Source: a virus. Taken from it: a DNA stretch of 38,335 bases. Every line of letters starts with the position of its first letter. Positions within the stretch are counted from its first letter, which is position 1. Positions 8,077 to 38,335 of this stretch are shown piece by piece. Where the stretch lies: IMG/VR virus record IMGVR_UViG_3300017998_000006; one strand, given 5' to 3'. The notes under the pieces were generated by a model. It had not been told where the DNA came from. It worked only from the letters and a program-made list of their open reading frames with translations, and did no database searches. Both the position numbers and the translations under genes were made by a program.

Positions 8077-8120
8077 CGCGTCCTCCGGTTTGAGAATAAC
8101 ACCAAAACGGGCGGCATGAA

Positions 8121-8432: not shown

Positions 8433-8661
8433 CCGAGCGCCTCTCTTCCTATGGTATACTCTCGCATATGGCTCTGAATGGATGGTGCGGAGGACGCCAC
8501 GGGAAATGGCGAAGCAATCTGGAGTTTTTCCGACGGATGGACGCGCAAGCCAGCGCGATACAACCATCGAAACATCGCCCGAATGACGCAAAAACACCCG
8601 ATAAACCCGCCATTCCAGGCCCCGTGTTCACGGACGGATCGAAGATAGACTTCTAGCCCCG

Positions 8662-8976: not shown

Positions 8977-9010
8977 ACCAAGATCCTCTCGCCCCTTCCA
9001 CTCGAAATCT

Positions 9011-9049
9011 CCGGCAGCCGCGCGAAGGAGCCCATAACGCGGCTGCCGG
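9011..9049 (-). terminator. Strong hairpin between the capsid-like gene and the next gene (attenuator/terminator or mRNA stabiliser)
   Basis: ccggcagccgcg (9011..9022) / cgcggctgccgg (9038..9049): 12-bp perfect stem, 15-nt loop, 24 nt after the 9073 stop. Confidence 0.6.
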
Positions 9050-9072
9050 AAGTCTCCGCGAGGAGATCTGTG

Positions 9073-9789: not shown

Positions 9790-9881
9790 TTCTTTTTACT
9801 CCGGGGCAAGCTCTCGCAAGCCCCCAAATTCTTTACTGCCGACGCACACCGTGCGCCTCGGTTGTCCGGATCGGCCCGAAG

Positions 9882-10754: not shown

Positions 10755-10785
10755 GTGACCTCCTCAGATCAAAGTCGCCATCCGG

Positions 10786-11274
10786 TTACGGCATGGACGG
10801 GATATTCGAAGCCAACGGCGTCCACGGCCTCTGGATAATCACGTTGAACGTGCAATCGGAGCCGGTGATGGCGTTCGCAGCCGGCTTCGTCACAGTCAAC
10901 GCGTTCGCACCGAGTGCCCACGTCAGCGCCGGATACGCCGTGCCCCCAGCGCTCATGTAAGCGATGACCCAGGGCCTCAAGACTGCCAGCGCAGCCGTCG
11001 ACACGTTGAAATTATGCGTGATAGTGGCCGCCCCACTCTCCGTGCCTGTCCAAGCTACCTGTGCCGCAACGCTCTGCACATTGGCAGCTTGGGCCCGGGT
11101 TGGAGCGGCACCGCCTGTGGTTGGGTCGAGGTACGTAACCGTGATCCCCGCGATCCCCATGGACAGGCAGGCCACCAGCGATTGAGTCGAAATGTGAATG
11201 TTGAAGGCGAAAACGACGGCTACTGCCATCAGGAAAAGCAGCGCCGCCGCGCCCAGCTTGTGAAGTTTGCTCAT
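10786..11274 (-). CDS. N-terminally anchored/secreted beta-rich protein
   Basis: AGGAG 10 nt before ATG 11274 (MSKLHKLGAAALLFLMAVAVVFAF...); T/A/V-rich body; the longest ORF (to 11337) lacks an SD. Confidence 0.65.
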   Translation of the reverse strand: MSKLHKLGAAALLFLMAVAVVFAFNIHISTQSLVACLSMGIAGITVTYLDPTTGGAAPTRAQAANVQSVAAQVAWTGTESGAATITHNFNVSTAALAVLRPWVIAYMSAGGTAYPALTWALGANALTVTKPAANAITGSDCTFNVIIQRPWTPLASNIPSMP

Positions 11275-11473
11275 ACTCTCGTTTCTCCTTTTTGCCCGGC
11301 GTGCGGGCTTGCTTCTCTCAAAAACCGTCCACCGCAAAGCAAAAGGGGCTACCTGCGTTCAGGAGCCTATGACAACTCCCAAACGCCGGCAGCCCCTTCT
11401 AGAAGGCTTGCCCTGCGGTTCACTACATCACCAGGCGATTCCGGCCGGTCTCGCCTAATGAACCTTCAGAAAC

Positions 11474-12970
11474 TCACGGTGCGCTCACGAGCACCTCGTT
11501 GACCGGGTGACGAACCTCGATATGATCCGGCCCTACCCTGTCCGCAAAATTGTGCGCCCGGCGCCACTCATAGACCTCAGCGCCGTGCTGGTACGCTTCC
11601 GGCGCATTCTGGTAGGCATACGTGCCGTCCCAGGTCCCTTTACCGTAGAGCGGATGTCGGTGTGGGAACATCAAATGCTTGGCGTCTACAATGACGCCAT
11701 CCCGCCGCGCGACATCCGTAAAATCGTTGTCCGCGAACATGCCCCAGTACTCGGGATAGAACAGCCGCCCATAGCGTTCGTAGTACGGTCTCGTGACGAT
11801 GTTGAATGTCATCAGCGAATTGTTGCCACCCGTCGAAATCCAGACCGCAGCCTCAGCGCTCAAATCCGGCAGAACCTTGAGCAGCTCAGTATCCCAGTGG
11901 GGAGGCGGAAACCAGTCGTCCGCTACAGTAATCAAAACCTTACCCGTTGCGACAGCGCCAGCCGCATTGAACGCCGTCACCGCCGTGTGCCGATCATGGT
12001 TGCTGATCTTCTTGAAATGCTCCCACGGCACGCTTGATCGTTGAAGCTCGACCGTCTGCTCCGTGCATAGAATGTACTCACAGTCTTCGGGGTTGTCAGC
12101 CAGGTCGTACCACTCCTGGCAGGCGTTCCGCCAGCCATCGGGGAATCTCAATGTGGCATGGCACAGCGAGAACAGCGGGATTCCAGACCCGAACAACTTC
12201 CGCCGCGGACGCGGCGCGCGAACCATCGGCTCAGCGGCCAGATCCACGGTTTCAAACTGATCAACCGGCTCCGGTATCGGCGCCGTCTTCAAGTGCGGAA
12301 CTTTGACTTGCGGATCGACCAGAATCAACGCCCCGCCCCGTTCCCGAGCGTGGATGCAGAACGCAATATCCTCTCCAGTCATGCCCCACCGCAGGTTCTC
12401 CCCGCAAAATGGCACGAATGGATTGGCCCCTGCTTTCGCCAGCATCCCGTAGCGCATCAGCACCACCGGAAATCCGGTGTAGCCAACCTCCAAGAGCCGA
12501 TTCTCCCTGGCCGCCGTCTTCATCTCCGACGCATCGAAAGGCAGCACGGTGTAATCCGGCCGCAACCTGCCACATGAGACGATGGGGGGCATTCCCTGCC
12601 TCATGTTCGGCTCAGTCCAGCACCAGCCCGCTACCATGTCCGCTTTCGGAAACTCGTCCAGATCCTTTTTCAGCCGCGCGAAATGCTCCGGCAAGACGAT
12701 ATTGTCGTCATCGATCCACAAAACGTAGTCGATGGGTGTTGGAGAATGGAGCATCTCAAGCACCATGCTGGAACGCGTCACGAAGACCGAAGAGGAGTAC
12801 CCGAACAGCGGAGCCGGGTCGTACCCGCTCGACAGCAGCGACATGAACAGGTTGGTCCAGTTCGTCACCCAAGCCGAGGAGAAGGACTCACCCGGCATAC
12901 AGATGCCGATCGATACCCGCCTCGCCGGCGTGCCGTCGTTACCGTTCGTCTTGCCCAAGGTAAGCTCCAT
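11474..12970 (-). CDS. Two-domain glycosyltransferase (GT2-like N-domain + second GT-like domain)
   Basis: N-domain: RVSIGICMPGESF, DxD-type VLWIDDDNIVLP, GEDIAFCIHARERGG..KVPHL. C-domain: LFSLCHATLRFP.., ITVADDWFPPPHWD, ADNDFTDVA. Confidence 0.75.
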   Translation of the reverse strand: MELTLGKTNGNDGTPARRVSIGICMPGESFSSAWVTNWTNLFMSLLSSGYDPAPLFGYSSSVFVTRSSMVLEMLHSPTPIDYVLWIDDDNIVLPEHFARLKKDLDEFPKADMVAGWCWTEPNMRQGMPPIVSCGRLRPDYTVLPFDASEMKTAARENRLLEVGYTGFPVVLMRYGMLAKAGANPFVPFCGENLRWGMTGEDIAFCIHARERGGALILVDPQVKVPHLKTAPIPEPVDQFETVDLAAEPMVRAPRPRRKLFGSGIPLFSLCHATLRFPDGWRNACQEWYDLADNPEDCEYILCTEQTVELQRSSVPWEHFKKISNHDRHTAVTAFNAAGAVATGKVLITVADDWFPPPHWDTELLKVLPDLSAEAAVWISTGGNNSLMTFNIVTRPYYERYGRLFYPEYWGMFADNDFTDVARRDGVIVDAKHLMFPHRHPLYGKGTWDGTYAYQNAPEAYQHGAEVYEWRRAHNFADRVGPDHIEVRHPVNEVLVSAP

Positions 12971-13365
12971 TAGCGCTTTCCCATCTTCCGCTTGCTGTAG
13001 AACCGCTTCTCAGCGCGCCGCTTGAGGATCTTCTTCCGCTGGGCAGCCGAGTAGTTCCGTTTGCCCGCCATCTTCCGCCCGGTGATCTTCACCACCCCAT
13101 TGGGAAGCTTTCGGATGGTCACTGAGGCCATGTTTCGCAAGGTGGTGGAACGACCACGGACCTTGCGCGGATTCGAAATCGCATAGCGTTTGCCACCATC
13201 CACAACAGAGAGCGTTTCGCCAGGCTTCAGATGCGGCCGGCCAATATGAATTTGGCCTTCTCGAATCTTCTGCTCAACGACTTGCTTGGCATCGCTCCCC
13301 TCGTAATCGCGGTAGTATCGAATCGCCGCCGCCTTGCTCACGAAATGACTTGTGCCGTACGTCAT
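12970..13365 (-). CDS. Basic protein carrying the shared NPRKV..STTLRNMASVTI..NGVVKITGRKM module (paralog A) plus a Lys/Arg tail
   Basis: SNPRKVRGRSTTLRNMASVTIRKLPNGVVKITGRKMAGKR then NYSAAQRKKILKRRAEKRFYSKRKMGKR; ATGA-coupled upstream, TAATG-coupled to the glycosyltransferase. Confidence 0.7.
   Translation of the reverse strand: MTYGTSHFVSKAAAIRYYRDYEGSDAKQVVEQKIREGQIHIGRPHLKPGETLSVVDGGKRYAISNPRKVRGRSTTLRNMASVTIRKLPNGVVKITGRKMAGKRNYSAAQRKKILKRRAEKRFYSKRKMGKR
13069..13175. repeat. Dispersed repeat, copy A (coding; pairs with 8136..8242)
   Basis: See 8136..8242; 87/107 identical by hand alignment. Confidence 0.85.
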
Positions 13366-13754
13366 GGCTTCGCCCCCTGCGCGTCCAAGAACCTGTCCAG
13401 CCGGTTGCGCAGCCTTTCGATTTCACCAGAGATATCGTTCAGCTTTACTGGAACCCCCGAGAAATCCCTGATCGCAGTTCGCATCTGGTCCAGTTCTTTC
13501 TCGATCGCCATCAGCCGCAGTTCCCGCACTTCCCACTCCCGAACGTTGCGGTTGATGATCTTTACCGCCGAAAATATGACGGTGAACAGAGAGATGACTT
13601 GAAGCACGACGATGAGCCAGTCCCGAAACTCCAGAACAGAGCCGCCAACCGCGCCGTGGTCTGTGGACTGAGACCAAGCAAGGAAGGGAAGCCACATCAC
13701 AAACGCAAACAGAACCGCTGGAAATCGGAGTTTCGTTATGCACTGCCGCTGCAT
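13362..13754 (-). CDS. Membrane protein with coiled-coil C-terminal half
   Basis: TM segments FPAVLFAFVMWLPFLAW and WLIVVLQVISLFTVIFSAV, then REWEVRELRLMAIEKELDQMRTAIRD..IERLRNRLDRF. Confidence 0.65.
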   Translation of the reverse strand: MQRQCITKLRFPAVLFAFVMWLPFLAWSQSTDHGAVGGSVLEFRDWLIVVLQVISLFTVIFSAVKIINRNVREWEVRELRLMAIEKELDQMRTAIRDFSGVPVKLNDISGEIERLRNRLDRFLDAQGAKP

Positions 13755-15286
13755 CAGTTTCGTATCCCTTCCGGTTCGACCGAGTACTCACCGCCAGCAA
13801 AAGCCAGCGCTTGGTTCATCACGTCGTACAGTAGCCGAGGTTTCGGCGCGCGCCTTTCACCAAAGCCGTAGGACATGCGCGTCTTGCCCTCTTCGGAGAG
13901 CTTGTGGTGGTAGGATGCTTCCCCGCCCTGGTCTCCCAAGTGGTCTTTGGCCGTGAAGTACCAGAGCTTCACCACTTCCCCCAGGTCCTCAATGTCGTGA
14001 TACGGCTTCCCTATTCCAAACGCTGAGAGTTTCACCGCCTGGTCCCCGCCTTCGATGTAGAGCTGCGTTCCGCGCTCATTCGAGCACAGCACCGCGTCTC
14101 CGAACCGTTCCAAGTCCACCAGACCCCCGTCGTTCGCGCGCACAGTCAGCTTCTCCAGCTCGCCCAGGGCGGCCAGGTGCGCGTGGTAGTGAACTGGCTT
14201 TTCGACTTCCACCAGCTCACCGGACGGCCGACCGTGGAACTTCTGGTACATCGAGGCCGCCGCGTCTGCGGGGTTCCGTGTCGCCTTCTTCTTGAGCTTC
14301 ACACCCAGCTTCATGAACTCCTGGCCCAGTATGGCAGCCATGGTAGGGTCCACGTTCTTCCGCCGCCCTTTCGCGGCCGCTCGCTGCAATTCCGCCGCGC
14401 CTTCTGGGGTACGCCTTTTGGAGGCCGCGCACACTGCGTTAGGATCGTCCACATCGCCGCGCCTTGATACAGCCGCAACACACCGCGCGAAAGAACTCTG
14501 ACCCGGGTTCAAAGTCTTCTGGACAAGCTCGTCGCGCCGTTCCAAAAGCCTTTTCATCTTTTTAGCATCCGTAGTTCCCAGAATCTCTCGGTTGATGGAG
14601 TCAACCTCAGCTCCGAGCCTCGAATGCGGACCCCTGTTTTTGCGATTCCACGATGTGATGAAGCCTTTCACGTCCTTTTCCGAGTCAAACAGCGAATCAC
14701 CACCACCCAAGGATGTACGCCAGCCCGCCTCGTCCGACCCGTACACCCGGTATCCTTTATAGGTCTGCGAGATCTCGCGCGCCGCAGTATGTGCGGGAGC
14801 ATACCGCGACGCGCTGCGGGCGCTGGCGGGCATGGTTTGACGCGGAGACGTGGCTTTCGAGGAGAAAGGCCAGAGGTTACGGCGGGAAGACTTCAAATCC
14901 GCAATCCGCCGCGCGTACTCGATTCGTTTCGACCTCGGGGTGGCATGGATCATCGCGCCAGCTTCCCCGTGCTCGCCTGAGTGCTGCTGTTGCGAGACAG
15001 CCCAAGCGTACTGCGCAAAAGTCGGTACCCCGCCTTTCGCCGGGTTGTACTGATTCGTCGGAACTCCGGCGCCTATCCGCTTGAATGCCACCGCCAGCTT
15101 CCCGTTACAGGACCGGCACCCATAGGCGAGGTTCTGAAGCTCTCCGTTTGCTTCGTTCCCGTCCAAATGCATAACCCCCAACTGACGACGAGAGCCGCAC
15201 AGAACGCAGCGGCGCTCACCTCGTACCGTGTTCTGAGCGCGATAGCGTTTCGCCCGATCGGTTAGGTTGGCACGCTGAGCCATCAT
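13754..15286 (-). CDS. 510-aa protein with N-terminal HNH-type zinc-finger nuclease motif fused to a large unknown domain
   Basis: Start MMAQRANL at 15286 is ATGA-coupled to 15283..15579; RRCVLCGSRRQLGVMHLDGNEANGELQNLAYGCRSCN fits C-x2-C..H-x-D/N..N..C-x2-C HNH; the remainder has no motif I recognise. Confidence 0.6.
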   Translation of the reverse strand: MMAQRANLTDRAKRYRAQNTVRGERRCVLCGSRRQLGVMHLDGNEANGELQNLAYGCRSCNGKLAVAFKRIGAGVPTNQYNPAKGGVPTFAQYAWAVSQQQHSGEHGEAGAMIHATPRSKRIEYARRIADLKSSRRNLWPFSSKATSPRQTMPASARSASRYAPAHTAAREISQTYKGYRVYGSDEAGWRTSLGGGDSLFDSEKDVKGFITSWNRKNRGPHSRLGAEVDSINREILGTTDAKKMKRLLERRDELVQKTLNPGQSSFARCVAAVSRRGDVDDPNAVCAASKRRTPEGAAELQRAAAKGRRKNVDPTMAAILGQEFMKLGVKLKKKATRNPADAAASMYQKFHGRPSGELVEVEKPVHYHAHLAALGELEKLTVRANDGGLVDLERFGDAVLCSNERGTQLYIEGGDQAVKLSAFGIGKPYHDIEDLGEVVKLWYFTAKDHLGDQGGEASYHHKLSEEGKTRMSYGFGERRAPKPRLLYDVMNQALAFAGGEYSVEPEGIRN

Positions 15287-15579
15287 ATTACGGCCTTTTG
15301 AAGCTTCCGACTGCGCCGCCGGCGCCGAATGCCTTTGGCAACGGTCTGTGTGCCTCGCTTCGTGGTGAAGAACACCGAGAACGCGATGTACAACACACCA
15401 GCCACCGTGGCCCATTCCCCAATGCCCCACTGCGAAAAGTCGAGGCCAGAGTCGAAGAGCCCCATCCCACCGCACCCGCACATGCCAGGACAGCCCAGCC
15501 CTACCTGTCTGTCCCAGGCCGCTTGACCATTCGGCGGGAAACTCGGAACCTGACCACACGGGACGGACTGAATAAACAT
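15283..15579 (-). CDS. Cys-rich C-terminally anchored membrane protein with poly-Arg tail
   Basis: GAGGAGA before ATG 15579 (MFIQSVPCGQ..); GLGCPGMCGCGGMGLF; TM WATVAGVLYIAFSVFF then KGIRRRRRSRKLQKAVI. Confidence 0.6.
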   Translation of the reverse strand: MFIQSVPCGQVPSFPPNGQAAWDRQVGLGCPGMCGCGGMGLFDSGLDFSQWGIGEWATVAGVLYIAFSVFFTTKRGTQTVAKGIRRRRRSRKLQKAVI

Positions 15580-16868: not shown

Positions 16869-17312
16869 TCACGCGAACCTCCGGCGCTGATAGAATCTGC
16901 CCATGCCGCGGTAGAGGCCCAGCCCGCTCATTCCTTGGGTCACCAGGTACGGCTCCATCAGAGACCAATACTGAGCCGCCGTCATGGTAGCCGTGCGCGG
17001 ATTCGCATCGGTAAATGTGAAAACCGATTCCGGGGCAGGAGGAGTCACCGAGGATACCGACTTGAGGTACACGTTCCAGCCATCCGCCGTCAACAAAGCA
17101 TTCGCCGGAGCCGCCGCGACCATCCGGCTATAGATCGCCGCCAGCGAATTAAAGGCGGGCGTCGTAGTCGTGGGCGTCGTGGTGGCCGGTGTCGTGGTGG
17201 CGGGAGTCGTAGTGGCGGGAGTCGTAGTGGCCACAGCCGGCGTCGCAAAGTACGTCTCGTACACCCAGTACGCCCCAACCCCAATCGCCAGCCACTTGAT
17301 AATGTCTTTCAT
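16869..17312 (-). CDS. N-terminally anchored protein with (T3-4 P A)x5 linker
   Basis: ATGA-coupled start MKDIIKWLAIGVGAYWVY (TM); ATTTPATTTPATTTPATTTPTTTTPA; C-terminus GLGLYRGMGRFYQRRRFA. Confidence 0.65.
   Translation of the reverse strand: MKDIIKWLAIGVGAYWVYETYFATPAVATTTPATTTPATTTPATTTPTTTTPAFNSLAAIYSRMVAAAPANALLTADGWNVYLKSVSSVTPPAPESVFTFTDANPRTATMTAAQYWSLMEPYLVTQGMSGLGLYRGMGRFYQRRRFA
17157..17231. repeat. 5 x 15-nt tandem coding repeat (Thr-Thr-Thr-Pro-Ala units)
   Basis: gggcgtcgtagtcgt / gggcgtcgtggtggc / cggtgtcgtggtggc / gggagtcgtagtggc / gggagtcgtagtggc on the plus strand; the last two units are identical. Confidence 0.9.
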
Positions 17313-18301
17313 CGTTTGCCTCCAGAGGAGAATGCAAAAAGCGAAATGGCACACGCCGCCGCAACCAGCGCCCAGTTCGGAACACCGGCAATCATTTCAT
17401 TGGTGAACCAGTTGGCCGTCGTAGCCGTCGTGGTAGCCGGCGTCGTGGTCGAACCCGTCGTGGTCGAAATGGGCGTGGTCGAAACGGGTGTGGTCGAAAC
17501 GGGCGTAGTAACCGAAGTTGCGGGTGCGGCCTGAACCGTAAAGCTAAACGAGCTTATTCCGATCCCGTTTACCGTCCAGCCCTCGTACCAAGAGCCAATC
17601 GCGGAACTGTCTATGGTGCCCGACAAAGAGAAGTTGCCCCAGTTGTCCGTGGTGCCAGTCGGGGTGGTGTTCATCGCGCCATTCTTCCCGCCCACTACAG
17701 CAATTGGCGCATTTGGCGTGGCGCCGCTGATGCTGATCGTCCAGGTATCGCCCGGATAAAGGACGTTTCCGCCTCGACTCGTTACAAAACTCAGACTCCC
17801 ATGCCCCGGCACTGGAGTAATGGGACCGGCTACGACAATAGAAGGATTCGCAATGGAACTGGACCCAGTCTGAACCACAGGAACGATAGACGCCAAAATG
17901 CTCGAAGGTACCCTGCCACCGTACTGCTGCTGGATATCCGAAATTTGTTGCGCCCGTTTGGTGTTCCGCTGACTGCAAGCGAATTGTGCGGCAACATCGG
18001 GCCCCGGACACAACTCCCACCCAACCGCTGTCTGCAAGTCTGAGTAGGATGCCCATGACGTGTTCATCGCCGCAGAAACAGAAGCAGTGTCTACAGACGG
18101 GTTCGTGCCTTGAGCCGGAGTCGGAACGACCCCTGATTGCATCCCTTGTTGCAGCCAGTAGTCATAATTCGACACGGAATCCGAATACGGGCCACTCGGG
18201 CAATTTGTAGGCGTGCAGGTATCGCCCAGCCCGGCGCGACGCCGCCTCGACGGAACGACGTTCACTCGCACCGCCATCGGAAGCCGCTGTCGAATAATCA
18301 T
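17309..18301 (-). CDS. C-terminally anchored protein: RRRRAGLG leader, Cys-containing domain, beta-sandwich-like domain, Thr/Pro linker
   Basis: ATGA-coupled start MIIRQRLPMAVRVNVVPSRRRRAGLGDTC; ..LYPGDTWTISISGATPNAPIAVVGG..; TTPVSTTPVSTTPISTTTGSTTTPATTTATT; C-terminus WALVAAACAISLFAFSSGGKR. Confidence 0.65.
   Translation of the reverse strand: MIIRQRLPMAVRVNVVPSRRRRAGLGDTCTPTNCPSGPYSDSVSNYDYWLQQGMQSGVVPTPAQGTNPSVDTASVSAAMNTSWASYSDLQTAVGWELCPGPDVAAQFACSQRNTKRAQQISDIQQQYGGRVPSSILASIVPVVQTGSSSIANPSIVVAGPITPVPGHGSLSFVTSRGGNVLYPGDTWTISISGATPNAPIAVVGGKNGAMNTTPTGTTDNWGNFSLSGTIDSSAIGSWYEGWTVNGIGISSFSFTVQAAPATSVTTPVSTTPVSTTPISTTTGSTTTPATTTATTANWFTNEMIAGVPNWALVAAACAISLFAFSSGGKR
17445..17504. repeat. 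4 x 15-nt tandem coding repeat (Thr-Thr-Pro-Val/Ile-Ser units)
   Basis: gtggtcgaacccgtc / gtggtcgaaatgggc / gtggtcgaaacgggt / gtggtcgaaacgggc, with degenerate units on both sides. Confidence 0.85.
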
Positions 18302-19041
18302 GACATCACCGCCACGAGTGCCAAGGCCGCCGCCAGCAAAACCCAAGACGGAAGGCTCGACAGCTCGCTCAATGCGGAATTTGCCGCCCCTGTCACAAGT
18401 GAAGACACCGAATCTGGCACCACATTGGGGTCCTGGCTTATGGGGTCGCGATAAGCATTGAACCAGTTCCAGCACTGGCCCGCCGCCGGCCCGCCTGGCC
18501 AGGGAGAATCCGCCGTAGCCTTCCAGGTACACGCCCCAGACTGCCGATCCGAGATGCACCGCTTACCGGCGTTCCCCGTGGATGGGTTGCCGCACATGTT
18601 CACCAGCGTGGCCCAGATCGCATCGAAGTTTGCCAACGCCGTTTTCTGTTGGCTTTCAGTCCGCGGAGCCGCCACGCTGAAGTAGGTTGAGATGTTCTGC
18701 CGAAGCAGCGGTTCCGCCTGATTTGCCCACCCGGAAGTTTCGATGCACGTCTGTCCACACCCGGAGTTTTTGATAAGATCTGCTGCCAGCAGCGTAATCC
18801 CCACAATCGCCGCGCCAACAATCGGAATGGCGACGGCCGTAGAGACTCCAAGTATGCCAGCGGCCGTGGCCCCCGTTGCGGCCGCTACAGCCGGCGCCGC
18901 TGCCGATCCGAAGGCCTGGGTGTACTGTGCATCCGTGGCCGCCGTGCCCATCCCGCGACTCCGGTGTCTCGATTGCACAGCCCGGCCAAAGCCTTGCACC
19001 GGCGAGACGAACGCGCGCGAATGGGTCCGAATGTACATCAT
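18298..19041 (-). CDS. Two-TM, Cys-rich membrane protein with SRGMG leader
   Basis: MMYIRTHSRAFVSPVQGFGRAVQSRHRSRGMGTAATD; TM ILGVSTAVAIPIVGAAIVGITLLAADLI; 8 Cys in the middle domain (GCGQTC, MCGNPS, KRCISDRQSGAC, GQCWNW); C-terminal TM WVLLAAALALVAVMS. Confidence 0.65.
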   Translation of the reverse strand: MMYIRTHSRAFVSPVQGFGRAVQSRHRSRGMGTAATDAQYTQAFGSAAAPAVAAATGATAAGILGVSTAVAIPIVGAAIVGITLLAADLIKNSGCGQTCIETSGWANQAEPLLRQNISTYFSVAAPRTESQQKTALANFDAIWATLVNMCGNPSTGNAGKRCISDRQSGACTWKATADSPWPGGPAAGQCWNWFNAYRDPISQDPNVVPDSVSSLVTGAANSALSELSSLPSWVLLAAALALVAVMS

Positions 19042-20162
19042 TTCTTTGCGATCAACAAAACAGCACCCAGGGCAGCCACCAGCACCAGGATTGTGCCCGT
19101 GCTCAAACCGCCAATGCCAGAAGACGAAAGCAGGGAACTCGCCGCCGTGCTGCTGGATGGCGTGATAATCGTCGTCCCGCTCGCCGTCTTATACGTGGTA
19201 GTGGGCGCGATGACGCGGCTAGCAATCGTCGTCCACGAGTTCAGTAGTGTGTTCAGCTCGTTCTGAAAGCTGGATCCGCCGGTGGTCGACAATCCCCCGC
19301 TCGATGATTCGGCAACTGGGCATTGAGCGGAACCCAGAACGCAGCTCGTGCCATCCGAGAACTCAACGATACTGTCGCCTCCGGCCGTTACCGTAGGGTC
19401 TGGAATCGTTACGCAGTTGGCCCCGTCCTCATCGCACTGGTAGGTATCCCCCAATCCGCGCATCCCACGCCGCCGGCGCATAAGCCGTGTCCGCGGTACA
19501 GCGCCCATGCCCGACCATCCCCGGCCGCGGATGTATCCCGCCATCCTCTTTATAGGGCGCTCACGCTCCACCGGCTGCCCGTCCTGGTCCCATGCCTGGT
19601 AGCGGAGGATGTGATCTGCCGGGACTTCCCACCCCGGATACTTCGCATCCGGCGGCATCGCGTCCATAACGAATCGCCGGCCGTCCTCAAGCGTGGCTAC
19701 CGCGTAGACGTGCGACCAGCGCTGCGCATCCCCCGGATCGGCCGCCACCGTGACGATCTCCCACGGCACGCCCAAGCACTCGAGGAAGCAGCACACGAGC
19801 ATTGTGAAATCGTCGCAGTCGCCTTGCGGACTCCTGGCGCGCACCATGACCGAGGGCGACACCAGCAGTTCAAGCTCCGGCGGGTTGGGCGTGGGGATGT
19901 GCTGTAGCAGTGAATCGTCGGAAACAAACTTCAGGGTATGGCGGATCGACCACCAGATGGCCCAGCACGCAGCGTAGGCCCCGGCCCGCCCTTGCGAATA
20001 CTTCAGGAGCGCATTGCGCGCGGCCGCTTGCACCACAGGGTCTTGCGCACACTGGCGGATCTGCTGTGCCATGAGCGCAACTGTTTGCGCGGTCGAGTGG
20101 TCCTGATTGTTTAGGTCCGCCTGGTAGCGCTCGACCATGATCGGAAGGGTAGAGGTGGCCAT
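19038..20162 (-). CDS. Transglutaminase-like cysteine-protease domain protein with S/T-rich C-terminal half and C-terminal TM anchor
   Basis: QGDC(116)DDF, 35 aa, WSH(151)VY, 16 aa, VMD(167)A = Cys-His-Asp spacing of transglutaminase-like/papain-type fold; LMRRRRGMRGLGDTYQC at ~aa 228-243; C-terminus GTILVLVAALGAVLLIAKK. Confidence 0.55.
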   Translation of the reverse strand: MATSTLPIMVERYQADLNNQDHSTAQTVALMAQQIRQCAQDPVVQAAARNALLKYSQGRAGAYAACWAIWWSIRHTLKFVSDDSLLQHIPTPNPPELELLVSPSVMVRARSPQGDCDDFTMLVCCFLECLGVPWEIVTVAADPGDAQRWSHVYAVATLEDGRRFVMDAMPPDAKYPGWEVPADHILRYQAWDQDGQPVERERPIKRMAGYIRGRGWSGMGAVPRTRLMRRRRGMRGLGDTYQCDEDGANCVTIPDPTVTAGGDSIVEFSDGTSCVLGSAQCPVAESSSGGLSTTGGSSFQNELNTLLNSWTTIASRVIAPTTTYKTASGTTIITPSSSTAASSLLSSSGIGGLSTGTILVLVAALGAVLLIAKK

Positions 20163-29539: not shown

Positions 29540-29943
29540 ACGTCCACTTCGAACCCAACGTACCCCAGACTTTGGCCCTTCAGGAACCAAGAGCCGAGCA
29601 GTTCGGAGACTACGAGATCACATACACGCTCACCGACGGCCGGCTACTGAAAGTCTCCAAGGCCGTCGCCGCGAAAATCAACGAGTTGGACTTGCAGCCC
29701 GGCGAAACCTTTGGGATCTGCAAGCAGATGGTCTTCAATGAGCAGCGCAGGCGCGACACGCCAGTCTGGACGGTCTGGTTAACCCCGGAGACCGAGAAGG
29801 CCAGGACCAAGCAGGAGACACAGCCGCCCATGACGCTGGCCGACGTGAAGCGACCGGGGAAGGTCCGTAGCATCCGCAAAAAAGGACCAGAGCAGCAAAC
29901 CTTGATATTCGACCGAGACCTTTTGGAACTGGTAATGCTATGA
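29536..29943 (+). CDS. Hypothetical protein
   Basis: ATGA-coupled on both sides; 135 aa with protein-like composition. Confidence 0.65.
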   Translation: MNVHFEPNVPQTLALQEPRAEQFGDYEITYTLTDGRLLKVSKAVAAKINELDLQPGETFGICKQMVFNEQRRRDTPVWTVWLTPETEKARTKQETQPPMTLADVKRPGKVRSIRKKGPEQQTLIFDRDLLELVML

Positions 29944-30998
29944 AATCCCCGCAAAACTGGGCCATTTATTGTCTCAAAGATCCACGCACCGGCACAGTTC
30001 GTTATGTCGGCTGGACTTCACAAACACCCACAAGGCGTATGACATGCCATCTTTCAGAAGCACTTCACGAGTCGCGACAAGCACATACATTCAAATCCAG
30101 ATGGATTCGCCTCCTGCTAACCACAGGGGTTCGACCTGTCATGGAAGTTCTGGAAACAGGCATAGGCGATTCCTGGGCATCAGCAGAACAACGGTGGATA
30201 GCATTCTTTCGTGGTAACGGGGCGGCTCTCACAAATGGATCAGACGGAGGAGAAGGCAATTTGGGCTACAGTCCACCGCCAGAGGTTCGAGAGAAGATCT
30301 CACGCGCAAACAAGGGCTGCAAACGTTCGCCTGAGCATATAGCCAAAATGGCAGCAGCGGCTCGGCTGGCAAACACTGGGAGGCACCGTTCGCCGGAAAT
30401 CACAGAAAAAATTGCGAGCCAGCTACGTGGAGTTCCAAGACCTCCTGAAGTGTGGGAAAACTGCCGCAAAGCCTCAAAAGGCCGGATCGTATCAAAAGAA
30501 ACCCGCCAAAAACTCTCCGATTGTCGAAGGGGAAAGCCTCTATCTTTGGAAACTCGGGCGAGAATGAGTGAATCGGCCAAACACAAACCGCCCATGAGTG
30601 CTGAAACTCGCGCTCTCTTATCTGCAAAACTGAAAGGTCGCACATGCGGAACTCCAGAAGGACGTAGGAGCCGAATCGAAAAGATGCGGGGCCGCATAAA
30701 TCCCAAAGCGATAGCCGCCATGATCGCGGCAAACACCGGCTCCAAACACCCACCCGAAACAGCAGCTAAAAATGCGGCAACCCGTGCTAGCTGGCCCCCC
30801 GAATATCGGGCCGAAGTTGGTAGGCGAATCAGCGAGAAGTGCAAAGGCCGAAAACATTCAGCCGAAACACGGGAAAAACTCGCCGCATGGCATCGGGGCC
30901 GTAAAGCTTCTCCAGAAACGCTCATCAGAATGAGCGAATCTGCCAAGCGGAAGAGTTCAGCCAGCAACAACGGGTTGCTGAGCCTGTGGGAGCGCTGA
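29940..30998 (+). CDS. GIY-YIG homing endonuclease with ~10 NUMOD3-type repeats
   Basis: WAIYCLKDPRTGTVRYVGWTS (GIY-x10-YVG), ...AEQRWIAFF..LTNGSDGG; then repeated S/P-x-E-x-R-x-K-h-S-x-x-x-K/R-G units (PEVREKISRANKG, PEHIAKMAAAA, PEITEKIASQLRG, KETRQKLSDCRRG, LETRARMSESAKH, AETRALLSAKLKG, AETREKLAAWHRG, PETLIRMSESAKR). Confidence 0.85.
   Translation: MKSPQNWAIYCLKDPRTGTVRYVGWTSQTPTRRMTCHLSEALHESRQAHTFKSRWIRLLLTTGVRPVMEVLETGIGDSWASAEQRWIAFFRGNGAALTNGSDGGEGNLGYSPPPEVREKISRANKGCKRSPEHIAKMAAAARLANTGRHRSPEITEKIASQLRGVPRPPEVWENCRKASKGRIVSKETRQKLSDCRRGKPLSLETRARMSESAKHKPPMSAETRALLSAKLKGRTCGTPEGRRSRIEKMRGRINPKAIAAMIAANTGSKHPPETAAKNAATRASWPPEYRAEVGRRISEKCKGRKHSAETREKLAAWHRGRKASPETLIRMSESAKRKSSASNNGLLSLWER
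29940..30998 (+). mobile_element. Free-standing homing-endonuclease gene (selfish mobile gene)
   Basis: GIY-YIG/NUMOD3 architecture as in phage Seg/Tev-type endonucleases; its 3' 39 nt are duplicated 281 nt downstream. Confidence 0.5.
30960..30998 (+). repeat. 39-nt direct repeat, copy 1 (3' end of the endonuclease gene)
   Basis: gccagcaacaacgggttgctgagcctgtgggagcgctga; 36/39 identical to 31241..31279, with the last 27 nt perfect. Confidence 0.9.
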
Positions 30999-33805: not shown

Positions 33806-34690
33806 ATGAGACCTAAACTCTTGGCCTTGCTCCTCTCCCTTGGCAGCCTTGCAGCCTACGGCCAAGCTCCCGACTGCCAATTCACCCAAACCTTCACCGC
33901 GACCGGCTACGGCGTCACCGCGTCCAACCAGGCCGTGGCAAACCTCGGAACGCAATGCGTCACCTGGCGGCTCTCCTACTACGCCGACAACATGACGGCC
34001 CTTTCAATCCAGATCGAAGGCGCACCAGACTCTGCCGGCTCTCCTGGAACGTTCTCAGCCGTGCCCACCACCGCATGCTCGAGCACCGTGCAGCCACCAT
34101 GTATGCTTGACGGCGCGAACCCATTGACGGATATCAACCACAATACTGAAGCGTTCCGCGGATACTACGCATGGATCGCTTTACACGTTACAGTTTTCAC
34201 GTCTCCCGGCTCCGGCGAGATCACCGCCCGCATGTACGGGTACAAAGGCACGTCCTCAGCCAGCGTAATAGGGGGAGGCGGTGGCGTACCAGTAATCCCC
34301 TGTATCGGCACTCCTGGCGCGACCGCAGGTGCTTACCTTCAGCAGTGCCAGACCACTGCTGGAGCAATCTATGCGTGCAACAACCCTGCGAATTGCACGG
34401 TGGCTGTTGACTGGGTCACCGGCTCAGCCACCGTCAGCAAAGCCTCTACAACGGTTACCTTAGGGCCAATCGTTGACGGAGGCTGCGCCGAGACGCCCGT
34501 CTTCAATTTTGCCGGCATTTTGGCCGGCGACACGGTTTTTGCCGGGACCACCTCGACAGGAATGCCCGCCAGCGTGACGGTGGCCGCCAAGGTGGTTTCT
34601 AACAATGTTGTCGCTGTTGATGTTTGCAATCTCAGCGGCGGAATTTACACGGTTTCAAACGCGACCTTCACGGTCGCTATGGCAAAATAG
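33806..34690 (+). CDS. Secreted protein (signal peptide) with C-terminal CNLSGG-type domain
   Basis: MRPKLLALLLSLGSLAAYGQAP; no SD, but TATACT lies 7 nt before ATG; C-domain LGPIVDGGCAE..GDTVFAG..VAVDVCNLSGG..ATFTV is paralogous to 34703..35605. Confidence 0.65.
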   Translation: MRPKLLALLLSLGSLAAYGQAPDCQFTQTFTATGYGVTASNQAVANLGTQCVTWRLSYYADNMTALSIQIEGAPDSAGSPGTFSAVPTTACSSTVQPPCMLDGANPLTDINHNTEAFRGYYAWIALHVTVFTSPGSGEITARMYGYKGTSSASVIGGGGGVPVIPCIGTPGATAGAYLQQCQTTAGAIYACNNPANCTVAVDWVTGSATVSKASTTVTLGPIVDGGCAETPVFNFAGILAGDTVFAGTTSTGMPASVTVAAKVVSNNVVAVDVCNLSGGIYTVSNATFTVAMAK

Positions 34691-34702
34691 GAGAATTTTA
34701 AA

Positions 34703-35605
34703 ATGAAACGCTTGGTTCTATTCGCAGTTTGCAGTCTCACGCTGTTCGCTCAAGCTCCCGTGCAACGCTATACCTCTATTCTCAACGAGGGAGCGACCGG
34801 AACAACCGTTGCCACAATCACATCCCTGACTGGGGCTCCTTCCAAGGCCATCAAGACCACCGTCGGCTGCGCCGGCATCGTCGGCGTCACCGTGGGAGGG
34901 GCCGGCATCACCGGCAGCGCGATTATCGCCACCAATGGGAATGCCTCCATCGTTTTCGACGGGAACACCGTAGCCGGAGATTATTTCACCTGTTCGGGAA
35001 CCGTCGCGGGCAACGCTCACGATACCGGATCCAGTACCTATCCGACAGGTGGTTGGGTGGGAGGAATCGTGCTCACGACGAATGCCGGGACTGGCACGTA
35101 TGCCGCGGTTCTATTTCCTCAGCAGGCGCTCGCCGGAGCCAATGTCGCATTGAGCAATCTCGTCAGCCCGGTGGTTAGCCAGACATTGGAATTTGCCGCC
35201 ACCAAAAGCGTGGGCGATACGACGGCACCCCCTCAGTATCTCTATTTTTACGGGGCTGGAACGCAGGGATCCGATTCTTTCGAGTTCATCGGAACACCAT
35301 CCGGGAATCAGCAGATCACCATTTCTGGATCCGGAACAATAGGGTTCCGGCTGATCGGAACAGCTACTATTACACCCGGATCGCTGGTGGACGGTGCCTG
35401 CGCGGATCAATCCCCCACGGTTGCGCTCACCGGTGCCGTCGCCGGAGATCCGGCCGTGATAGGCGCTCCGTCTACGCTTGCGGCGGGGTTATACGCCCTA
35501 GGAGTGACGACCGCCACCAACACGATTACAGTTCGGCTGTGCAACCTGAGCGGAGGTACGCTTACGCCAGCCAGTGGCACATACACGGCAACTATTGTGC
35601 ATTAA
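34703..35605 (+). CDS. Secreted protein (signal peptide) with C-terminal CNLSGG-type domain
   Basis: AGGAGA 11 nt before ATG; MKRLVLFAVCSLTLFAQAP; C-domain PGSLVDGACAD..GDPAVIG..ITVRLCNLSGG..GTYTATI. Confidence 0.7.
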   Translation: MKRLVLFAVCSLTLFAQAPVQRYTSILNEGATGTTVATITSLTGAPSKAIKTTVGCAGIVGVTVGGAGITGSAIIATNGNASIVFDGNTVAGDYFTCSGTVAGNAHDTGSSTYPTGGWVGGIVLTTNAGTGTYAAVLFPQQALAGANVALSNLVSPVVSQTLEFAATKSVGDTTAPPQYLYFYGAGTQGSDSFEFIGTPSGNQQITISGSGTIGFRLIGTATITPGSLVDGACADQSPTVALTGAVAGDPAVIGAPSTLAAGLYALGVTTATNTITVRLCNLSGGTLTPASGTYTATIVH

Positions 35606-35633
35606 GCCGCGCATCCCACGACAGGAAACACTC

Positions 35634-36734
35634 ATGAAAACAGTCATCAGCGGGGCTCTCCTAGCGGTTTCTCTCGCAATGACGGCAGACTGGTTGTGCG
35701 CTCAGGACCCCGTTCTCCGGCAGCCCAGCCCAAGCATCGCAACCGATACCGCCTCTCTCGGGCCAGAACTGACCACTAGCGGGAGTTGCAACGGAACAGG
35801 CTGGACAGGGACTTACCCGAATTACATTGCGCCAGGCACCTCCGCCGCGTTGACTTGCACCGGCTTTGCGAGTGGCCAGTTTTACCAGACGGTGACTTCC
35901 ATTGGGGCCGGTGGCTCTGGGGGCGTTACCGTCGCAATCGGAACTGCCCAAACCGTTTACGAAACAAGTGGAATCGTCACGGCGGGCCTGAAGGCCAATG
36001 GCACGGCATTGACGTACACGCCAGATTCTACCTACACGGGGACGATTGGAATAAGTGCAAAGCTAATAACGCCGATTTCAACCTTTTCTTACGTCGGACG
36101 GGATTCGACGAACGCTGTCTCTACCCAGTTTCTCCGGCAGACACTTGCATCGTTGGTGAACGACTTCGGAGACGACAGCGGGGCTTACTGTACGACTTGC
36201 AGCTACAACTCGAACAGCGGCGCTCAGGGACTGTTCAGTATCACCACGGGCAGCGCTAACACGAACAGCGGCTTTCAAGGGATGGCCAGTCTCACCACGG
36301 GTAACGCTAACACAAATAGTGGCCTTCAAGGGATGTTGAGCCTCACCACGGGAATCCTCAACACGAACAGCGGCTATCAAGGGATGGCCGGTCTCACCAC
36401 GGGAAGCTTCAACAGTGCTCTGGGCTATCAGGCTGGTCGATACGTCACGGGAGGTTCTGTCGCAAACCAAACCAGTTCGTACTCTCTGTATTTAGGCATA
36501 AACACCATGGCTAAAACAGACGGGGACACGAATGAGCTTGTGCTGGGATACAACGCAACCGGGGCAGGATCAAACACCGCCGTAATTGGCAATGGATCGG
36601 TTACGGACGTGTATTTCGGGAGCGCCACGCCGGCGGCCACGCTTCATTCGTCGAGCATCGCCTTGACTGGAGCCTCTTTCACCTTGAACGGTAAAACATG
36701 CACCATCGTAGGCACGGCAATTTCTTGTATCTAG
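35634..36734 (+). CDS. Secreted fibre/adhesin-like protein with YadA-head-like (Hep_Hag-type) repeats
   Basis: MKTVISGALLAVSLAMTADWLCAQDP; NSGAQGLFSITTGSANT / NSGFQGMASLTTGNANT / NSGLQGMLSLTTGILNT / NSGYQGMAGLTTGSFNS / ALGYQAG..; later SNTAVIGNGS. Confidence 0.65.
   Translation: MKTVISGALLAVSLAMTADWLCAQDPVLRQPSPSIATDTASLGPELTTSGSCNGTGWTGTYPNYIAPGTSAALTCTGFASGQFYQTVTSIGAGGSGGVTVAIGTAQTVYETSGIVTAGLKANGTALTYTPDSTYTGTIGISAKLITPISTFSYVGRDSTNAVSTQFLRQTLASLVNDFGDDSGAYCTTCSYNSNSGAQGLFSITTGSANTNSGFQGMASLTTGNANTNSGLQGMLSLTTGILNTNSGYQGMAGLTTGSFNSALGYQAGRYVTGGSVANQTSSYSLYLGINTMAKTDGDTNELVLGYNATGAGSNTAVIGNGSVTDVYFGSATPAATLHSSSIALTGASFTLNGKTCTIVGTAISCI
36213..36416 (+). repeat. 4 x 51-nt tandem coding repeat (17-aa units)
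   Basis: aacagcggcNNtcaRggRatg...ctcaccacgggNa..c..aacac units start at 36213, 36264, 36315 and 36366. Confidence 0.9.
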
Positions 36735-36743
36735 GAGATTTTA

Positions 36744-36983
36744 ATGGGCAAAACACCAATTCTCGTGTTCGTCGGACTAATGCTCTTCGCAGTAGAGCCG
36801 AAACCGAAGCCTCCAACAGTTGAGGAATTGCAGACTCAGGTGACGCAACTCCAAGCGCAGATCTCGCAGAAGAACCAGCAGATAGCGGCGATGCAGGCCA
36901 ATATCGTAGCGAGCCAAAAGATGTTTGGCGCGTGCTTCCAAAGTCTGGCAGAAGCGGAACAGCGTGCCGCAGAAAGAAAATAA
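36744..36983 (+). CDS. Small anchored/secreted coiled-coil protein
   Basis: AGGAGA 7 nt before ATG; MGKTPILVFVGLMLFAV; LQTQVTQLQAQISQKNQQIAAMQ. Confidence 0.6.
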   Translation: MGKTPILVFVGLMLFAVEPKPKPPTVEELQTQVTQLQAQISQKNQQIAAMQANIVASQKMFGACFQSLAEAEQRAAERK

Positions 36984-38335
36984 TGAAACGCGTTCTCCCC
37001 CTGGTTTATCTCGCAGTGGCCGCAGGATGGTTATGTGCTCAGAATCCCGTAGTTCGGAGCAACATCGGGGCACATCTGGCGTGTCCAGCAGCTTCCAGTT
37101 CAGGTACCACTTACACCTGTGCCACTTCTCCGACCTTCACCCCAGCCGCAAACGACTGCGTTCTGCTGGTGGCGGATGTCGCCAGTGGCGCATCGCCCAC
37201 CCTGGCAGTCAACGGCGCTGCGGCTCTCGGAATCACGAAGCAGCAGAACGGCGCGGCGCTTGTGGCCAACGATCTGTTAGCCAACGGTCGAGTTCTGGTC
37301 TGCATGGATGCCGCTTCGCATTGGCAGATGCAGGGACAAACCGGAAACGCGGCGAGTGGCGGAGTTACTAGCATCAATGGCCTTACTGGGGCCGTGGCGC
37401 AACAGCAGATCACAGACATCTTCTCATCGAGCAAACCCGCAGGTGTCATGGGTACGTATTACGGCAGTCAGACTCTAGGCGCAGGCGCGACGGGAACTCT
37501 ACTCGCTACTGTAACCGGATCTGGATATGTGAGCGAGATATTTGTCGCGGTGAACCAAAGCCCCATCGCAATCACCGTCACAGTGGATGGAGAAGCCACT
37601 CCGTCAATTTCCGCATATAGCGTTCAGACGTTCTTAGGAGATGGGCTGTGTGACATAAGCCCATCTTGGGGAGGAAAGTGGATACGTGGCGGAAATAACG
37701 GAGCCAACAACTGCGGCGGGCTGTTCCGCATCCCAATCCCATTCTCTTCGTCGATTCTCATCCAGGCCAAGAATAATTCCGCCAACACTGTTGGCATCGC
37801 AAGCTATGTGGTGTATCACACCGGGATCACCGACAACTGGATATATACGCAAAGGCTTTACAACTCCGAAGCTTACGTTGCAGGGATGGCCGAGGACACA
37901 GAGGGGACTATTCTGGATGTGACCCCCAACAAGCGTGGCCGGTTGGTGGGAGTCGGCTGGATTTACGATGGGGCTCCCGGCGGCGCTAGCCCATCGACAG
38001 GACCGCTAGAAGGCCCATTCAAGATCTATATTGATGGATCTGGAACCGCAGCTTACAGAACTTCAGGGAGCGAAGATTTCTTTGGAATGCCCTGGTACTT
38101 CCAGCATCTTAATAACTTTGGCTCGGGATACAATACCACCCTTGCCCCTTCGTCGGAAGATATCGCACTGACGTTTGATGCGCCACCCACCTTCGGTGCA
38201 CAGCGCTTTTTTATACAAGATCCAATTGTTTTTAATACGGGGATTAAAATGACTTGGACATGCGGCGTTACTGCGCGCGTGAGCTTCTCTGGCACCTGTC
38301 TGCTGTTCGCGCAAGCATGGTACTACACTGAGAAC
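36983..38335 (+). CDS. Secreted protein with C-terminal DUF2961/GH172-like beta-jelly-roll domain (spans the circular junction; stop at 124..126)
   Basis: MKRVLPLVYLAVAAGWLCAQNP; ITVTVDGEATPS, FRIPIPFSSSILIQAKNNS, GRLVGVGW..LEGPFKIYIDGSG..TSGSEDFFG, QRFFIQDPIVFNTGIKMTW, AQAWYY follow the DUF2961 motif order as I recall it. Confidence 0.65.
   Translation, partial: MKRVLPLVYLAVAAGWLCAQNPVVRSNIGAHLACPAASSSGTTYTCATSPTFTPAANDCVLLVADVASGASPTLAVNGAAALGITKQQNGAALVANDLLANGRVLVCMDAASHWQMQGQTGNAASGGVTSINGLTGAVAQQQITDIFSSSKPAGVMGTYYGSQTLGAGATGTLLATVTGSGYVSEIFVAVNQSPIAITVTVDGEATPSISAYSVQTFLGDGLCDISPSWGGKWIRGGNNGANNCGGLFRIPIPFSSSILIQAKNNSANTVGIASYVVYHTGITDNWIYTQRLYNSEAYVAGMAEDTEGTILDVTPNKRGRLVGVGWIYDGAPGGASPSTGPLEGPFKIYIDGSGTAAYRTSGSEDFFGMPWYFQHLNNFGSGYNTTLAPSSEDIALTFDAPPTFGAQRFFIQDPIVFNTGIKMTWTCGVTARVSFSGTCLLFAQAWYYTEN
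38213..38335. repeat. Terminal direct repeat, copy 2 (identical to 1..123)
   Basis: See 1..123. Confidence 0.97.

Follow-up and report, generated by a model that had tools for sequence, protein, structure and literature searches.

The window analysed here, i.e. the whole 38,335-nucleotide stretch of viral DNA recorded as IMGVR_UViG_3300017998_000006 (GC content 58%), carries six consecutive genes (g1-g6) on the + strand, which extend from position 33806 to the window end, wrap to position 670 and all start with Sec-type N-termini. The last 123 bp of the window (positions 38213-38335) exactly repeat its first 123 bp (positions 1-123). Because of this direct terminal repeat (an unstranded feature), the window is taken to be a complete genome, circular or terminally redundant, with 38,212 unique bases, in which g5 reads through the junction to a stop codon at positions 124-126 and g6 is the next gene on the circular map. 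The open reading frames (ORFs) are as described in an initial annotation of the window, and the gene calls publicly available for identical contigs agree on the products (294, 300, 366, 79, 451 and 178 aa, respectively).

Signal peptides were predicted with our own von Heijne-type heuristic, which demanded a net-positive n-region, an 8-residue core with a Kyte-Doolittle mean of at least 2.0, small residues at positions -3 and -1, and no charge between the hydrophobic core and the cleavage site. The test was passed by eight of the 63 called genes, six of which are g1-g6; given eight such genes among 63 on a circle, the chance of a run of six is 2.5e-5. Approximately 2% of spurious ORFs passed the same test, none of them with Gln (Q) at position +1. 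The criteria for type I (Sec/signal peptidase I) signals were satisfied by g1, g2, g3, g5 and g6, with predicted cleavage sites AYG↓QAP, LFA↓QAP, LCA↓QDP, LCA↓QNP and ALA↓QTP. Gln thus directly follows the predicted site in five of the six proteins, which is the feature of the Bacteroidetes Q-rule, and the recurrent [AG]-Q-x-P site of the initial annotation was recovered in the same five as A/G↓Q. Judging from these N-termini, it is strongly supported that g1, g2, g3, g5 and g6 carry Sec/signal-peptidase-I signals whose removal would leave an N-terminal Gln. The N-terminus of g4 (MGKTPILVFVGLMLFA↓VEPKPKPP) has no polar c-region and may be an uncleaved signal-anchor preceding a coiled coil; it is equally strongly supported that g4 would be either membrane-anchored or exported.

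A C-terminal hydrophobic anchor is absent from all six proteins, as had been noted previously. The mature proteins consist of 42-59% G/S/T/A/N and only 6-10% charged residues, and each contains an even number of cysteines (10, 4, 6, 8 and 6, from g1 with 10 to g6 with 6), which suggests the formation of disulfide bonds. Homologues of g5 and g1 at 43-85% identity retain a signal peptide, although its sequence differs. In the closest IMG/VR relative (IMGVR_UViG_3300039307_000112), the equivalent convergent position is occupied by a gene (12921-13679, - strand) for a 252-aa leucine-rich-repeat (LRR) protein with a twin-arginine translocation (TAT) signal (SRRDFM...ARA↓QS), which also precedes a Gln. 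Since signals are kept by the g1 and g5 homologues, by about a third of the best full-length g3 homologues (see below) and, in TAT form, by this relative, export appears to be a selected property.

The first gene, g1 (33806-34690), encodes a protein of 294 aa. Its signal peptide is followed by a conserved beta-sandwich N-domain of approximately 145 aa ('PDCQFTQTFT...ARMYGYKGTS'), then by a linker rich in Gly and a stretch rich in Cys, and the C-terminus is formed by a beta-domain of 80 aa containing the motif 'CNLSGG'. The latter domain, already recognised in the initial annotation, is common to g1 and g2 (35% identity, E 2e-6). In the homologues of g1, the signal peptide and N-domain are constant and are followed by the Gly linker and by unrelated C-domains, some with classical fibre motifs; a conserved N-domain with exchanged C-domains is the layout of a receptor-binding protein. 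The AlphaFold (AF2) model of g1 is of medium quality (pLDDT 63.5 overall, 70-87 for residues 21-150), and its fold matches are weak: PBSX XepA, C-domains of Klebsiella phage depolymerases, C1q heads and a Bdellovibrio fibre tip. The second gene, g2 (34703-35605; 300 aa), encodes a signal peptide, a G/T/A-rich body and the C-terminal 'CNLSGG' domain.

The product of g3 (35634-36734; 366 aa) contains a signal peptide (WLCA↓QDP), an N-domain and a stalk built of 14-residue 'TTGxxNTNSGxQGM' repeats. Between residues 187 and 328, it is similar (E 5e-7 to 6e-4) to tail spikes, tail fibres and structural proteins known from cultured phages of Flavobacterium, Cellulophaga and Roseobacter. The previous description of the bodies of these proteins as adhesin or fibre material was borne out by the g3 repeats, whereas their supposed likeness to YadA heads was not recognised by Pfam. 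Among the 6260 homologous cluster representatives of g3, we inspected the 130 best full-length homologues: by our heuristic, 47 have a signal peptide, 30 of these with Q at +1, and the others begin like classical tail fibres. In the strain variant L007, which is otherwise 99-99.8% identical to the window, the stalk repeats of g3 have undergone an expansion of approximately 150-200 bp (window approximately 36200-36400; L007 11657-11701).

The short gene g4 (36744-36983; 79 aa) encodes an N-terminal hydrophobic segment (either a signal-anchor or a signal peptide), a Pro/Lys linker and a coiled coil, while g5 (36983-38335, on to the stop at 124-126; 451 aa) encodes a signal peptide (WLCA↓QNP), an N-domain and a C-terminal GH172/DUF2961 jelly-roll. 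The jelly-roll, proposed in the initial annotation, was identified as Pfam PF11175 (residues 197-430, E 1.2e-22, 81.1 bits against a cut-off of 27); the public record for g5 lists GH172_1st as faint. Long fibre-like proteins also contain the N-domain of g5 internally; over part of its length, one of them, a signal-bearing protein of 1789 aa in contig L002, shares 36% identity with it. A GH172 domain is likewise present in proteins that lack a signal and begin with a classical fibre N-terminus (P0008, P0016, P0019), and g5 has no match in cultured phages. The last gene, g6 (134-670; 178 aa), encodes a signal peptide (ALA↓QTPP) and an Ig-like body, and the mature protein has 6 Cys; the g6 region is called differently in strain L007.

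Several candidate assignments of the six proteins were rejected. A YadA-type trimeric autotransporter was considered for g3, which matches no Pfam or NCBIfam family at E values up to 0.1 or 0.05 and lacks a C-terminal anchor. For the C-terminal domain common to g1 and g2, neither Pfam nor NCBIfam gave a match that would identify it as cargo of the type IX secretion system (T9SS). The PEP-CTERM and lipoprotein readings found no Pfam or NCBIfam support and no lipobox, and the models of PADLOC, used to look for a defence or exclusion system, match none of g1-g6.

The presence of a glycosidase-type domain in g5, together with Laminin_G_3 and CHB_HEX_C domains in relatives, is compatible with auxiliary host-benefit genes, i.e. 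secreted carbohydrate-active enzymes or adhesins that serve the nutrition or attachment of the infected or carrier cell and have no role in adsorption or exclusion. We consider this quite improbable: only one of the six proteins has an enzyme-like domain, and the fibre motifs, the modular swapping of N- and C-domains and the close linkage to genes for structure and lysis would not be expected of metabolic genes. Moreover, the element is seen only as free contigs of approximately 38 kb. It was assembled in at least 49 sample blocks, in contigs of up to 38.4-38.6 kb, and none of the public contigs matching the window that bear it exceeds 50 kb; for this reason we regard it as a free replicon rather than an integrated island, and an integrated prophage or a moron on a host chromosome was ruled out.

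The cassette converges, at g6, on two - strand genes: one for a SleB-type cell-wall hydrolase (677-1078; PF07486) and, adjoining it, one for a holin-like protein with two transmembrane (TM) segments (1078-1353). This arrangement, combined with matches of g4 to Rz-like spanin PHROGs (E approximately 1e-3) and the weak fold match of g1 to XepA, might indicate that the genes are accessories of the lysis cassette, with g4 as a spanin-like or XepA-like envelope disruptor and the other five proteins helping to breach the outer layers from within. Such a function is highly improbable. The matches of g4 are at noise level and driven by its coiled coil, no lipobox gene that could encode an o-spanin lipoprotein partner lies nearby, and approximately 4.9 kb of variable fibre-like genes far exceeds what lysis needs. 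XepA of PBSX and its counterpart YomS of SPbeta (Bacillus subtilis) are exported proteins with two linked beta-sandwich domains, encoded beside lysis genes, and XepA is the best PDB match of the g1 model (E 3.8e-3). However, the TM-score reaches no more than 0.26-0.29, the sequences are not similar and the host is a Gram-positive bacterium; the resemblance may be architectural only.

Comparison with related genomes revealed that the cassette is replaceable. The relatives have between two and five signal-bearing genes beside their structural genes, in one case with a TAT signal. In nucleotide alignments, the similarity of the relatives to the window ends after the first 470 bases of g1 and resumes at the gene of an SLT lytic transglycosylase (3555-4076, - strand), which forms the conserved far edge of the cassette. 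The 7.7 kb between these points (34254, across the junction, to 3750) are replaced in relatives whose flanks align at 77-90%. Six relatives (L025-L027 and L029-L031), whose capsid proteins share 32-42% identity with the probable capsid protein of the window (see below), contain 2-4 consecutive signal-bearing genes, many with Q at +1, located 6-9 kb downstream of the capsid gene and on the same strand as the structural genes. In these six, as in L014 and L041, the signal-bearing genes share the strand of the structural genes and lie at their distal end. L014 (38.6 kb) has one signal-bearing gene (400 aa) at the position of the window cassette, preceded by an unflagged gene of 397 aa, and two further signal-bearing genes within the structural block. 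In L041, a very remote member of the family, a g1-like, a g2-like and a g3-like gene and one encoding a small membrane protein are arranged in this order just before the SLT gene, inside the structural operon. The identities are 67% for the g1 C-domain, 65% for g2 (signal peptide LALA↓QNPVQR) and 48% for g3. The similarity of g1-C, g2 and g3 suggests the transfer of a host-specific module, since the capsid protein of L041 is detectable by profile only and not by BLAST. The cassette of the window itself is inverted, i.e. located on the strand opposite to the late genes. From the placement of the genes in the relatives and their replacement, the six genes are best described as a mobile, host-specific module attached to structural and entry genes. 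We conclude firmly that the products of the cassette are proteins made for use outside the cytoplasm, and that the cassette is the variable host-interaction module.

Similar gene runs are present in cultured siphophages of Bacteroidota. Like g1-g6, four consecutive fibre-position genes of the Cellulophaga phages phi19:1 (gp101-gp104), phi46:3 (gp79-gp82) and Ingeline (gp31-gp34) have Sec-type signals, mostly ending before Gln. In phi19:1, where three of the four have Q at +1, these genes directly follow the tape measure gene and the genes of two distal tail proteins. GenBank describes all four products as structural proteins, with the note 'annotation based on experimental MS/MS proteomics analysis' (MS/MS, tandem mass spectrometry), and these annotation notes are the evidence for their association with the virion. 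Within a 49-kb stretch of phi19:1, gp101-gp104 are the only signal-bearing structural proteins identified by MS, and the other flagged genes encode a few small unannotated proteins (no more than 179 aa). This record contradicts the premise of the initial annotation that the fibres of cytoplasmically assembled phages do not carry signal peptides. The Cellulophaga runs lie just upstream of genes that encode small membrane proteins and lysis functions. A match to g3, in the form of shared stalk repeats, was obtained for Ingeline gp31, which is related to phi19:1 gp101. Unlike the window, these phages have a terminase, an HK97-type capsid and a tape measure, their host is a low-GC marine flavobacterium, and the similarity to g3 is confined to the repeat segment. 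The location of the cassette where receptor-binding genes would be expected, as proposed earlier, can be upheld by analogy only, since tail genes were not recognisable in the window. We found no comment in the searchable literature on the signal peptides of these Cellulophaga phage fibre proteins; among the papers searched, Q-rule signal-peptide genes of phages were noted only in a study of Porphyromonas gingivalis prophages (see below).

Signal-bearing genes of this kind were also found elsewhere. The uncultured tailed-phage contig L012 contains five consecutive signal-bearing genes (5886-15382; 452, 913, 339, 182 and 1159 aa), located between baseplate-like genes and a phage lysozyme gene, one of which has a GH172 and one a CHB_HEX_C domain. 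An 85-kb phage with a Gp23-type capsid also carries a signal-bearing GH172 protein. Immediately upstream of the signal-bearing fibre genes, the Cellulophaga phages encode two small proteins, one with a coiled coil and one with a single TM segment (L035 6388-6797, phi19:1 gp99-gp100; L034 6239-6786). In the window, g4 (36744-36983) joins the coiled-coil and TM features in one protein, and a conserved membrane-bound helper may be involved.

The virus that carries the cassette could not be assigned to a described group. A scan of 56 proteins against PHROGs and/or Pfam turned up no terminase, portal, HK97 capsid or tail protein, which ruled out a recognisable tailed phage (Caudoviricetes), and no sizeable ORF contains a Walker A motif or encodes an FtsK/HerA-type packaging ATPase. 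The hallmark of the element is a 238-aa protein (9073-9789, - strand), the probable major capsid protein, with a predicted jelly-roll. It has at least 260 homologous clusters at 90% identity (approximately 190-300 aa, no Pfam domain), on contigs of mostly 30-46 kb. Its AlphaFold model, built from a 76-sequence alignment, is a beta-sandwich (pLDDT 79, pTM 0.74), whose weak PDB matches are nearly all jelly-roll capsids (SPV1, circovirus, iridovirus, faustovirus, PBCV-1, STMV; best E 8.5e-3), with SPV1 as the best. The matches in BFVD are CRESS capsids and, as the best, the 211-aa entry I1ZBH9 (best E 9e-4, TM 0.46-0.51). Given its equal length (211 aa), we suppose that I1ZBH9 is gp46 of the Salisaeta phage SSIP-1, a tailless, membrane-containing virus; hhalign detected no profile or sequence similarity between the capsid candidate and gp45 or gp46 of this phage. 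Since the hallmark protein is predicted to fold as a jelly-roll and terminase, portal, HK97 capsid and tail were not recognised, the virus is probably tailless and membrane-rich, and we think it likely that the element belongs to an undescribed family of probably tailless jelly-roll viruses.

Among known systems, SSIP-1, Thermus phage P23-77 and the archaeal virus SPV1 represent tailless, membrane-containing viruses with single jelly-roll capsid proteins, to which the window compares in its circular double-stranded (ds) DNA of similar size (43.8 kb in SSIP-1), its many membrane proteins, the absence of recognisable tail genes and a candidate jelly-roll capsid protein. The window differs from SSIP-1-type viruses in having no similarity to gp45/gp46 and no packaging ATPase or Walker A motif that could be found, and signal-bearing spike genes have not been described for viruses of the SSIP-1, P23-77 or SPV1 type. 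The - strand late block is rich in membrane proteins, as the initial annotation had observed. It encodes (i) a 290-aa protein (9882-10754) with a protamine-like, Arg-rich N-half (approximately 140 residues with R/K runs) and a Gly-rich hydrophobic C-half, which has a homologue in L041 and is a candidate that may condense DNA at the membrane, (ii) a 374-aa protein (19038-20162) with an S/T-rich stalk, a C-terminal TM anchor and a transglutaminase-like 'GDCDDFT' motif, which matches structural protein gp34 of SSIP-1 (E 9e-7), and (iii) a 416-aa protein (17309-18559), also with an S/T-rich stalk and a C-terminal TM anchor.

The abundance of membrane proteins in the late block, the Arg-rich protein whose membrane half suggests that DNA is condensed at a membrane, and the resemblance of g4 to a signal-anchor raise the possibility that the N-terminal segments of the cassette proteins are not cleaved and anchor them as spikes in a lipid membrane of the virus itself. 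This is improbable, because a canonical cleavage site at -3/-1, with Q as the next residue, is present in five of the six, because an anchor with its N-terminus inside would place the protein body on the periplasmic side, which becomes the interior when a vesicle is pinched into the cytoplasm, and because the same signals are found in tailed phages, which have no membrane. Virion attachment proteins with cleavable signals are a feature of inoviruses (pIII/pVIII) and of the spikes of enveloped or pleomorphic prokaryotic viruses, which are assembled at or beyond the cytoplasmic membrane. These attachment proteins retain a membrane anchor, and the particles leave by extrusion or budding, whereas the cassette proteins have no C-terminal anchor and the virus has a cytoplasmic capsid protein and a lysis cassette.

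Taken together, g1-g6 appear to be a host-surface module, both exported and exchangeable, of a bacterial virus family not described before, whose members have genomes of approximately 35-45 kb and seem to possess jelly-roll capsids, many membrane proteins and no tail. In the mechanism that we propose, the cassette proteins would cross the inner membrane via Sec, be cleaved before Gln and fold outside the cytoplasm into fibre, lectin and GH172-type glycosidase proteins with a beta-sandwich or beta-helix structure. In a more speculative step, they would be the adsorption and depolymerase proteins of the virus, meeting the cytoplasmically built particle once the holin and endolysin have breached the envelope, or at the membrane, and attaching to it then. 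It is envisaged that g1 would dock on the particle through its conserved N-domain, and that the variable C-domains and the partner genes would set the specificity for host glycans. While still in the envelope, the exported proteins could also mask or trim receptors, and both roles are compatible. That they are exported, probably disulfide-bonded adsorption/depolymerase proteins which join the particles outside the cytoplasm is a tentative view, to which we give somewhat less than an even chance. Its extension to tailed phages such as phi19:1 is more doubtful, albeit possible: both these and the tailless family would use Sec/Tat-exported receptor-binding fibres and depolymerases that mature in the periplasm (by cleavage, pyroglutamate formation and disulfide bonding) and attach after the envelope has been breached. 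To our knowledge, such a two-compartment assembly route has not been described for icosahedral phages.

The following points weigh against the extracytoplasmic attachment of these proteins to the particle. The capsid candidate has no signal peptide, so the particles would form in the cytoplasm and the exported proteins would be outside it, and we know of no bacterial dsDNA virus that adds its fibres after export. The cassette lies opposite to the late genes and after small early-type genes, so it may be expressed early, like exclusion genes. The anchored proteins of 374 and 416 aa could be the real spikes, and the MS/MS detection of the phi19:1 proteins could derive from co-purifying outer-membrane vesicles or debris. 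Cysteines are not significantly enriched in comparison with the rest of the proteome (2.2% versus 2.0%, p 0.5). The tailless assignment depends on weak fold matches of a predicted structure (PDB 8.5e-3, BFVD 9e-4), and all the signal-peptide predictions come from our own heuristic.

Some of these points suit a different explanation, in which the proteins are exported but do not enter the virion and instead coat or trim the glycans or the receptor of the infected cell, blocking superinfection and the loss of progeny to debris in the manner of T5 Llp or a receptor-destroying enzyme. The topology would then be simple, with the exported proteins staying in the envelope; the cassette lies opposite to the late strand and contiguous with small early-type genes, and its very variable content (2-6 genes; LRR, Laminin_G, GH172) is like that of moron or exclusion cassettes. 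The exported prophage protein XepA bears a weak resemblance to the g1 model, and the Q-rule signal-peptide genes of Porphyromonas gingivalis phages were read as host-surface modifiers (PMC10367356). In those genes, as in the cassette, predicted cleavage by signal peptidase I exposes Gln, which implies an adaptation of phage proteins to the secretion/pyroglutamate system of the host; they differ from the cassette in that they are scattered, have no known function and belong to tailed prophages (PMC10367356). The role as host-surface modifiers is the main competing explanation, albeit a less likely one than attachment to the particle. Against it, the proteins have the layout of receptor-binding proteins, with a conserved N-domain, swapped C-domains and fibre motifs; in most relatives the genes are co-oriented with and embedded in the structural operon; architecturally similar signal-bearing proteins are recorded in the virions of phi19:1; and neither a lipobox nor a match to known exclusion proteins or PADLOC models was found.

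Exported phage proteins that act on the host envelope include Llp of T5, Cor of phi80/T1 and Lom and Bor of lambda, whose genes lie beside those of receptor-binding proteins, sometimes on the opposite strand. These are single small lipoproteins or outer-membrane proteins, in contrast to the six-gene fibre-, lectin- and glycosidase-like block described here, with its swapped C-domains and no lipobox. The initial annotation had offered both decoration of the particle and remodelling of the host surface, and the evidence leans slightly towards extracytoplasmic decoration of the particle.

The clustering of signal-bearing genes in the window is a real and non-random observation, and it opens the question of where viral fibres are made. 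According to textbooks, icosahedral phages complete their particles in the cytoplasm. Should the adsorption apparatus consist of the exported proteins, there would be exceptions to this rule, and host-range prediction and virion-protein classifiers that discard proteins with signal peptides would miss real receptor-binding proteins. Whether its products decorate the particle or modify the host, the cassette marks the host-interaction module of a widespread, unannotated virus family present in several bacterial phyla.

Relatives of the virus were found in metagenome-assembled genomes (MAGs) of Terriglobia, Phycisphaerales, Verrucomicrobia and Acidimicrobiales, i.e. in four phyla other than Bacteroidota; the genome scan for MAG placement yielded phyla for relatives and none for this virus. 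One homologue of the capsid protein (44% identity) is located in a 1.47-Mb contig of an Acidimicrobiales MAG (CAWDEI010000007.1). Its position in a very long chromosomal contig suggests that members of the family may integrate and may infect Actinomycetota in addition to diderm phyla. Gln at +1 is a published hallmark of Bacteroidota, established by an examination of five phyla among which Acidobacteria were not included (PMC5837995). A Bacteroidota-type promoter motif is not enriched in the window, and scans for sigma-70 promoters, Bacteroidota promoters and terminators around the cassette gave nothing informative.

The recognisable families among the proteins scanned are limited to the SLT transglycosylase, the SleB-type hydrolase, a GT2 glycosyltransferase (GT), a GIY-YIG/NUMOD3 homing endonuclease and DUF968. 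The endonuclease gene (29940-30998, + strand; phrog_314, E 1e-18) is situated among small + strand genes and is called shorter (285 aa) in the strain variant L007/L010. In the structural block, the gene at 13362-13754 (- strand) encodes a signal peptide with Q at +1 (FLAWS↓QST) and a second TM segment. It is the sole gene outside g1-g6 whose signal peptide ends before Q, and it is kept in the IMG/VR relative. The adjacent gene (13754-15559, - strand) is the largest ORF of the window (601 aa); apart from an HNH-like Cys/His motif near residues 118-165, its product has no detectable homology; tblastn against 50,697 phage records gave no match and a sequence search of PDB gave noise only. It is 60% identical to a 554-aa protein of IMGVR_UViG_3300039307_000112. 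The GT2 domain is part of a 498-aa fusion protein (11474-12970, - strand) encoded within the structural block, in which it is joined to phrog_1574, a phage family of unknown function. Genes of the GT1, GT4 and GT9 types also occur in the structural block of relatives.

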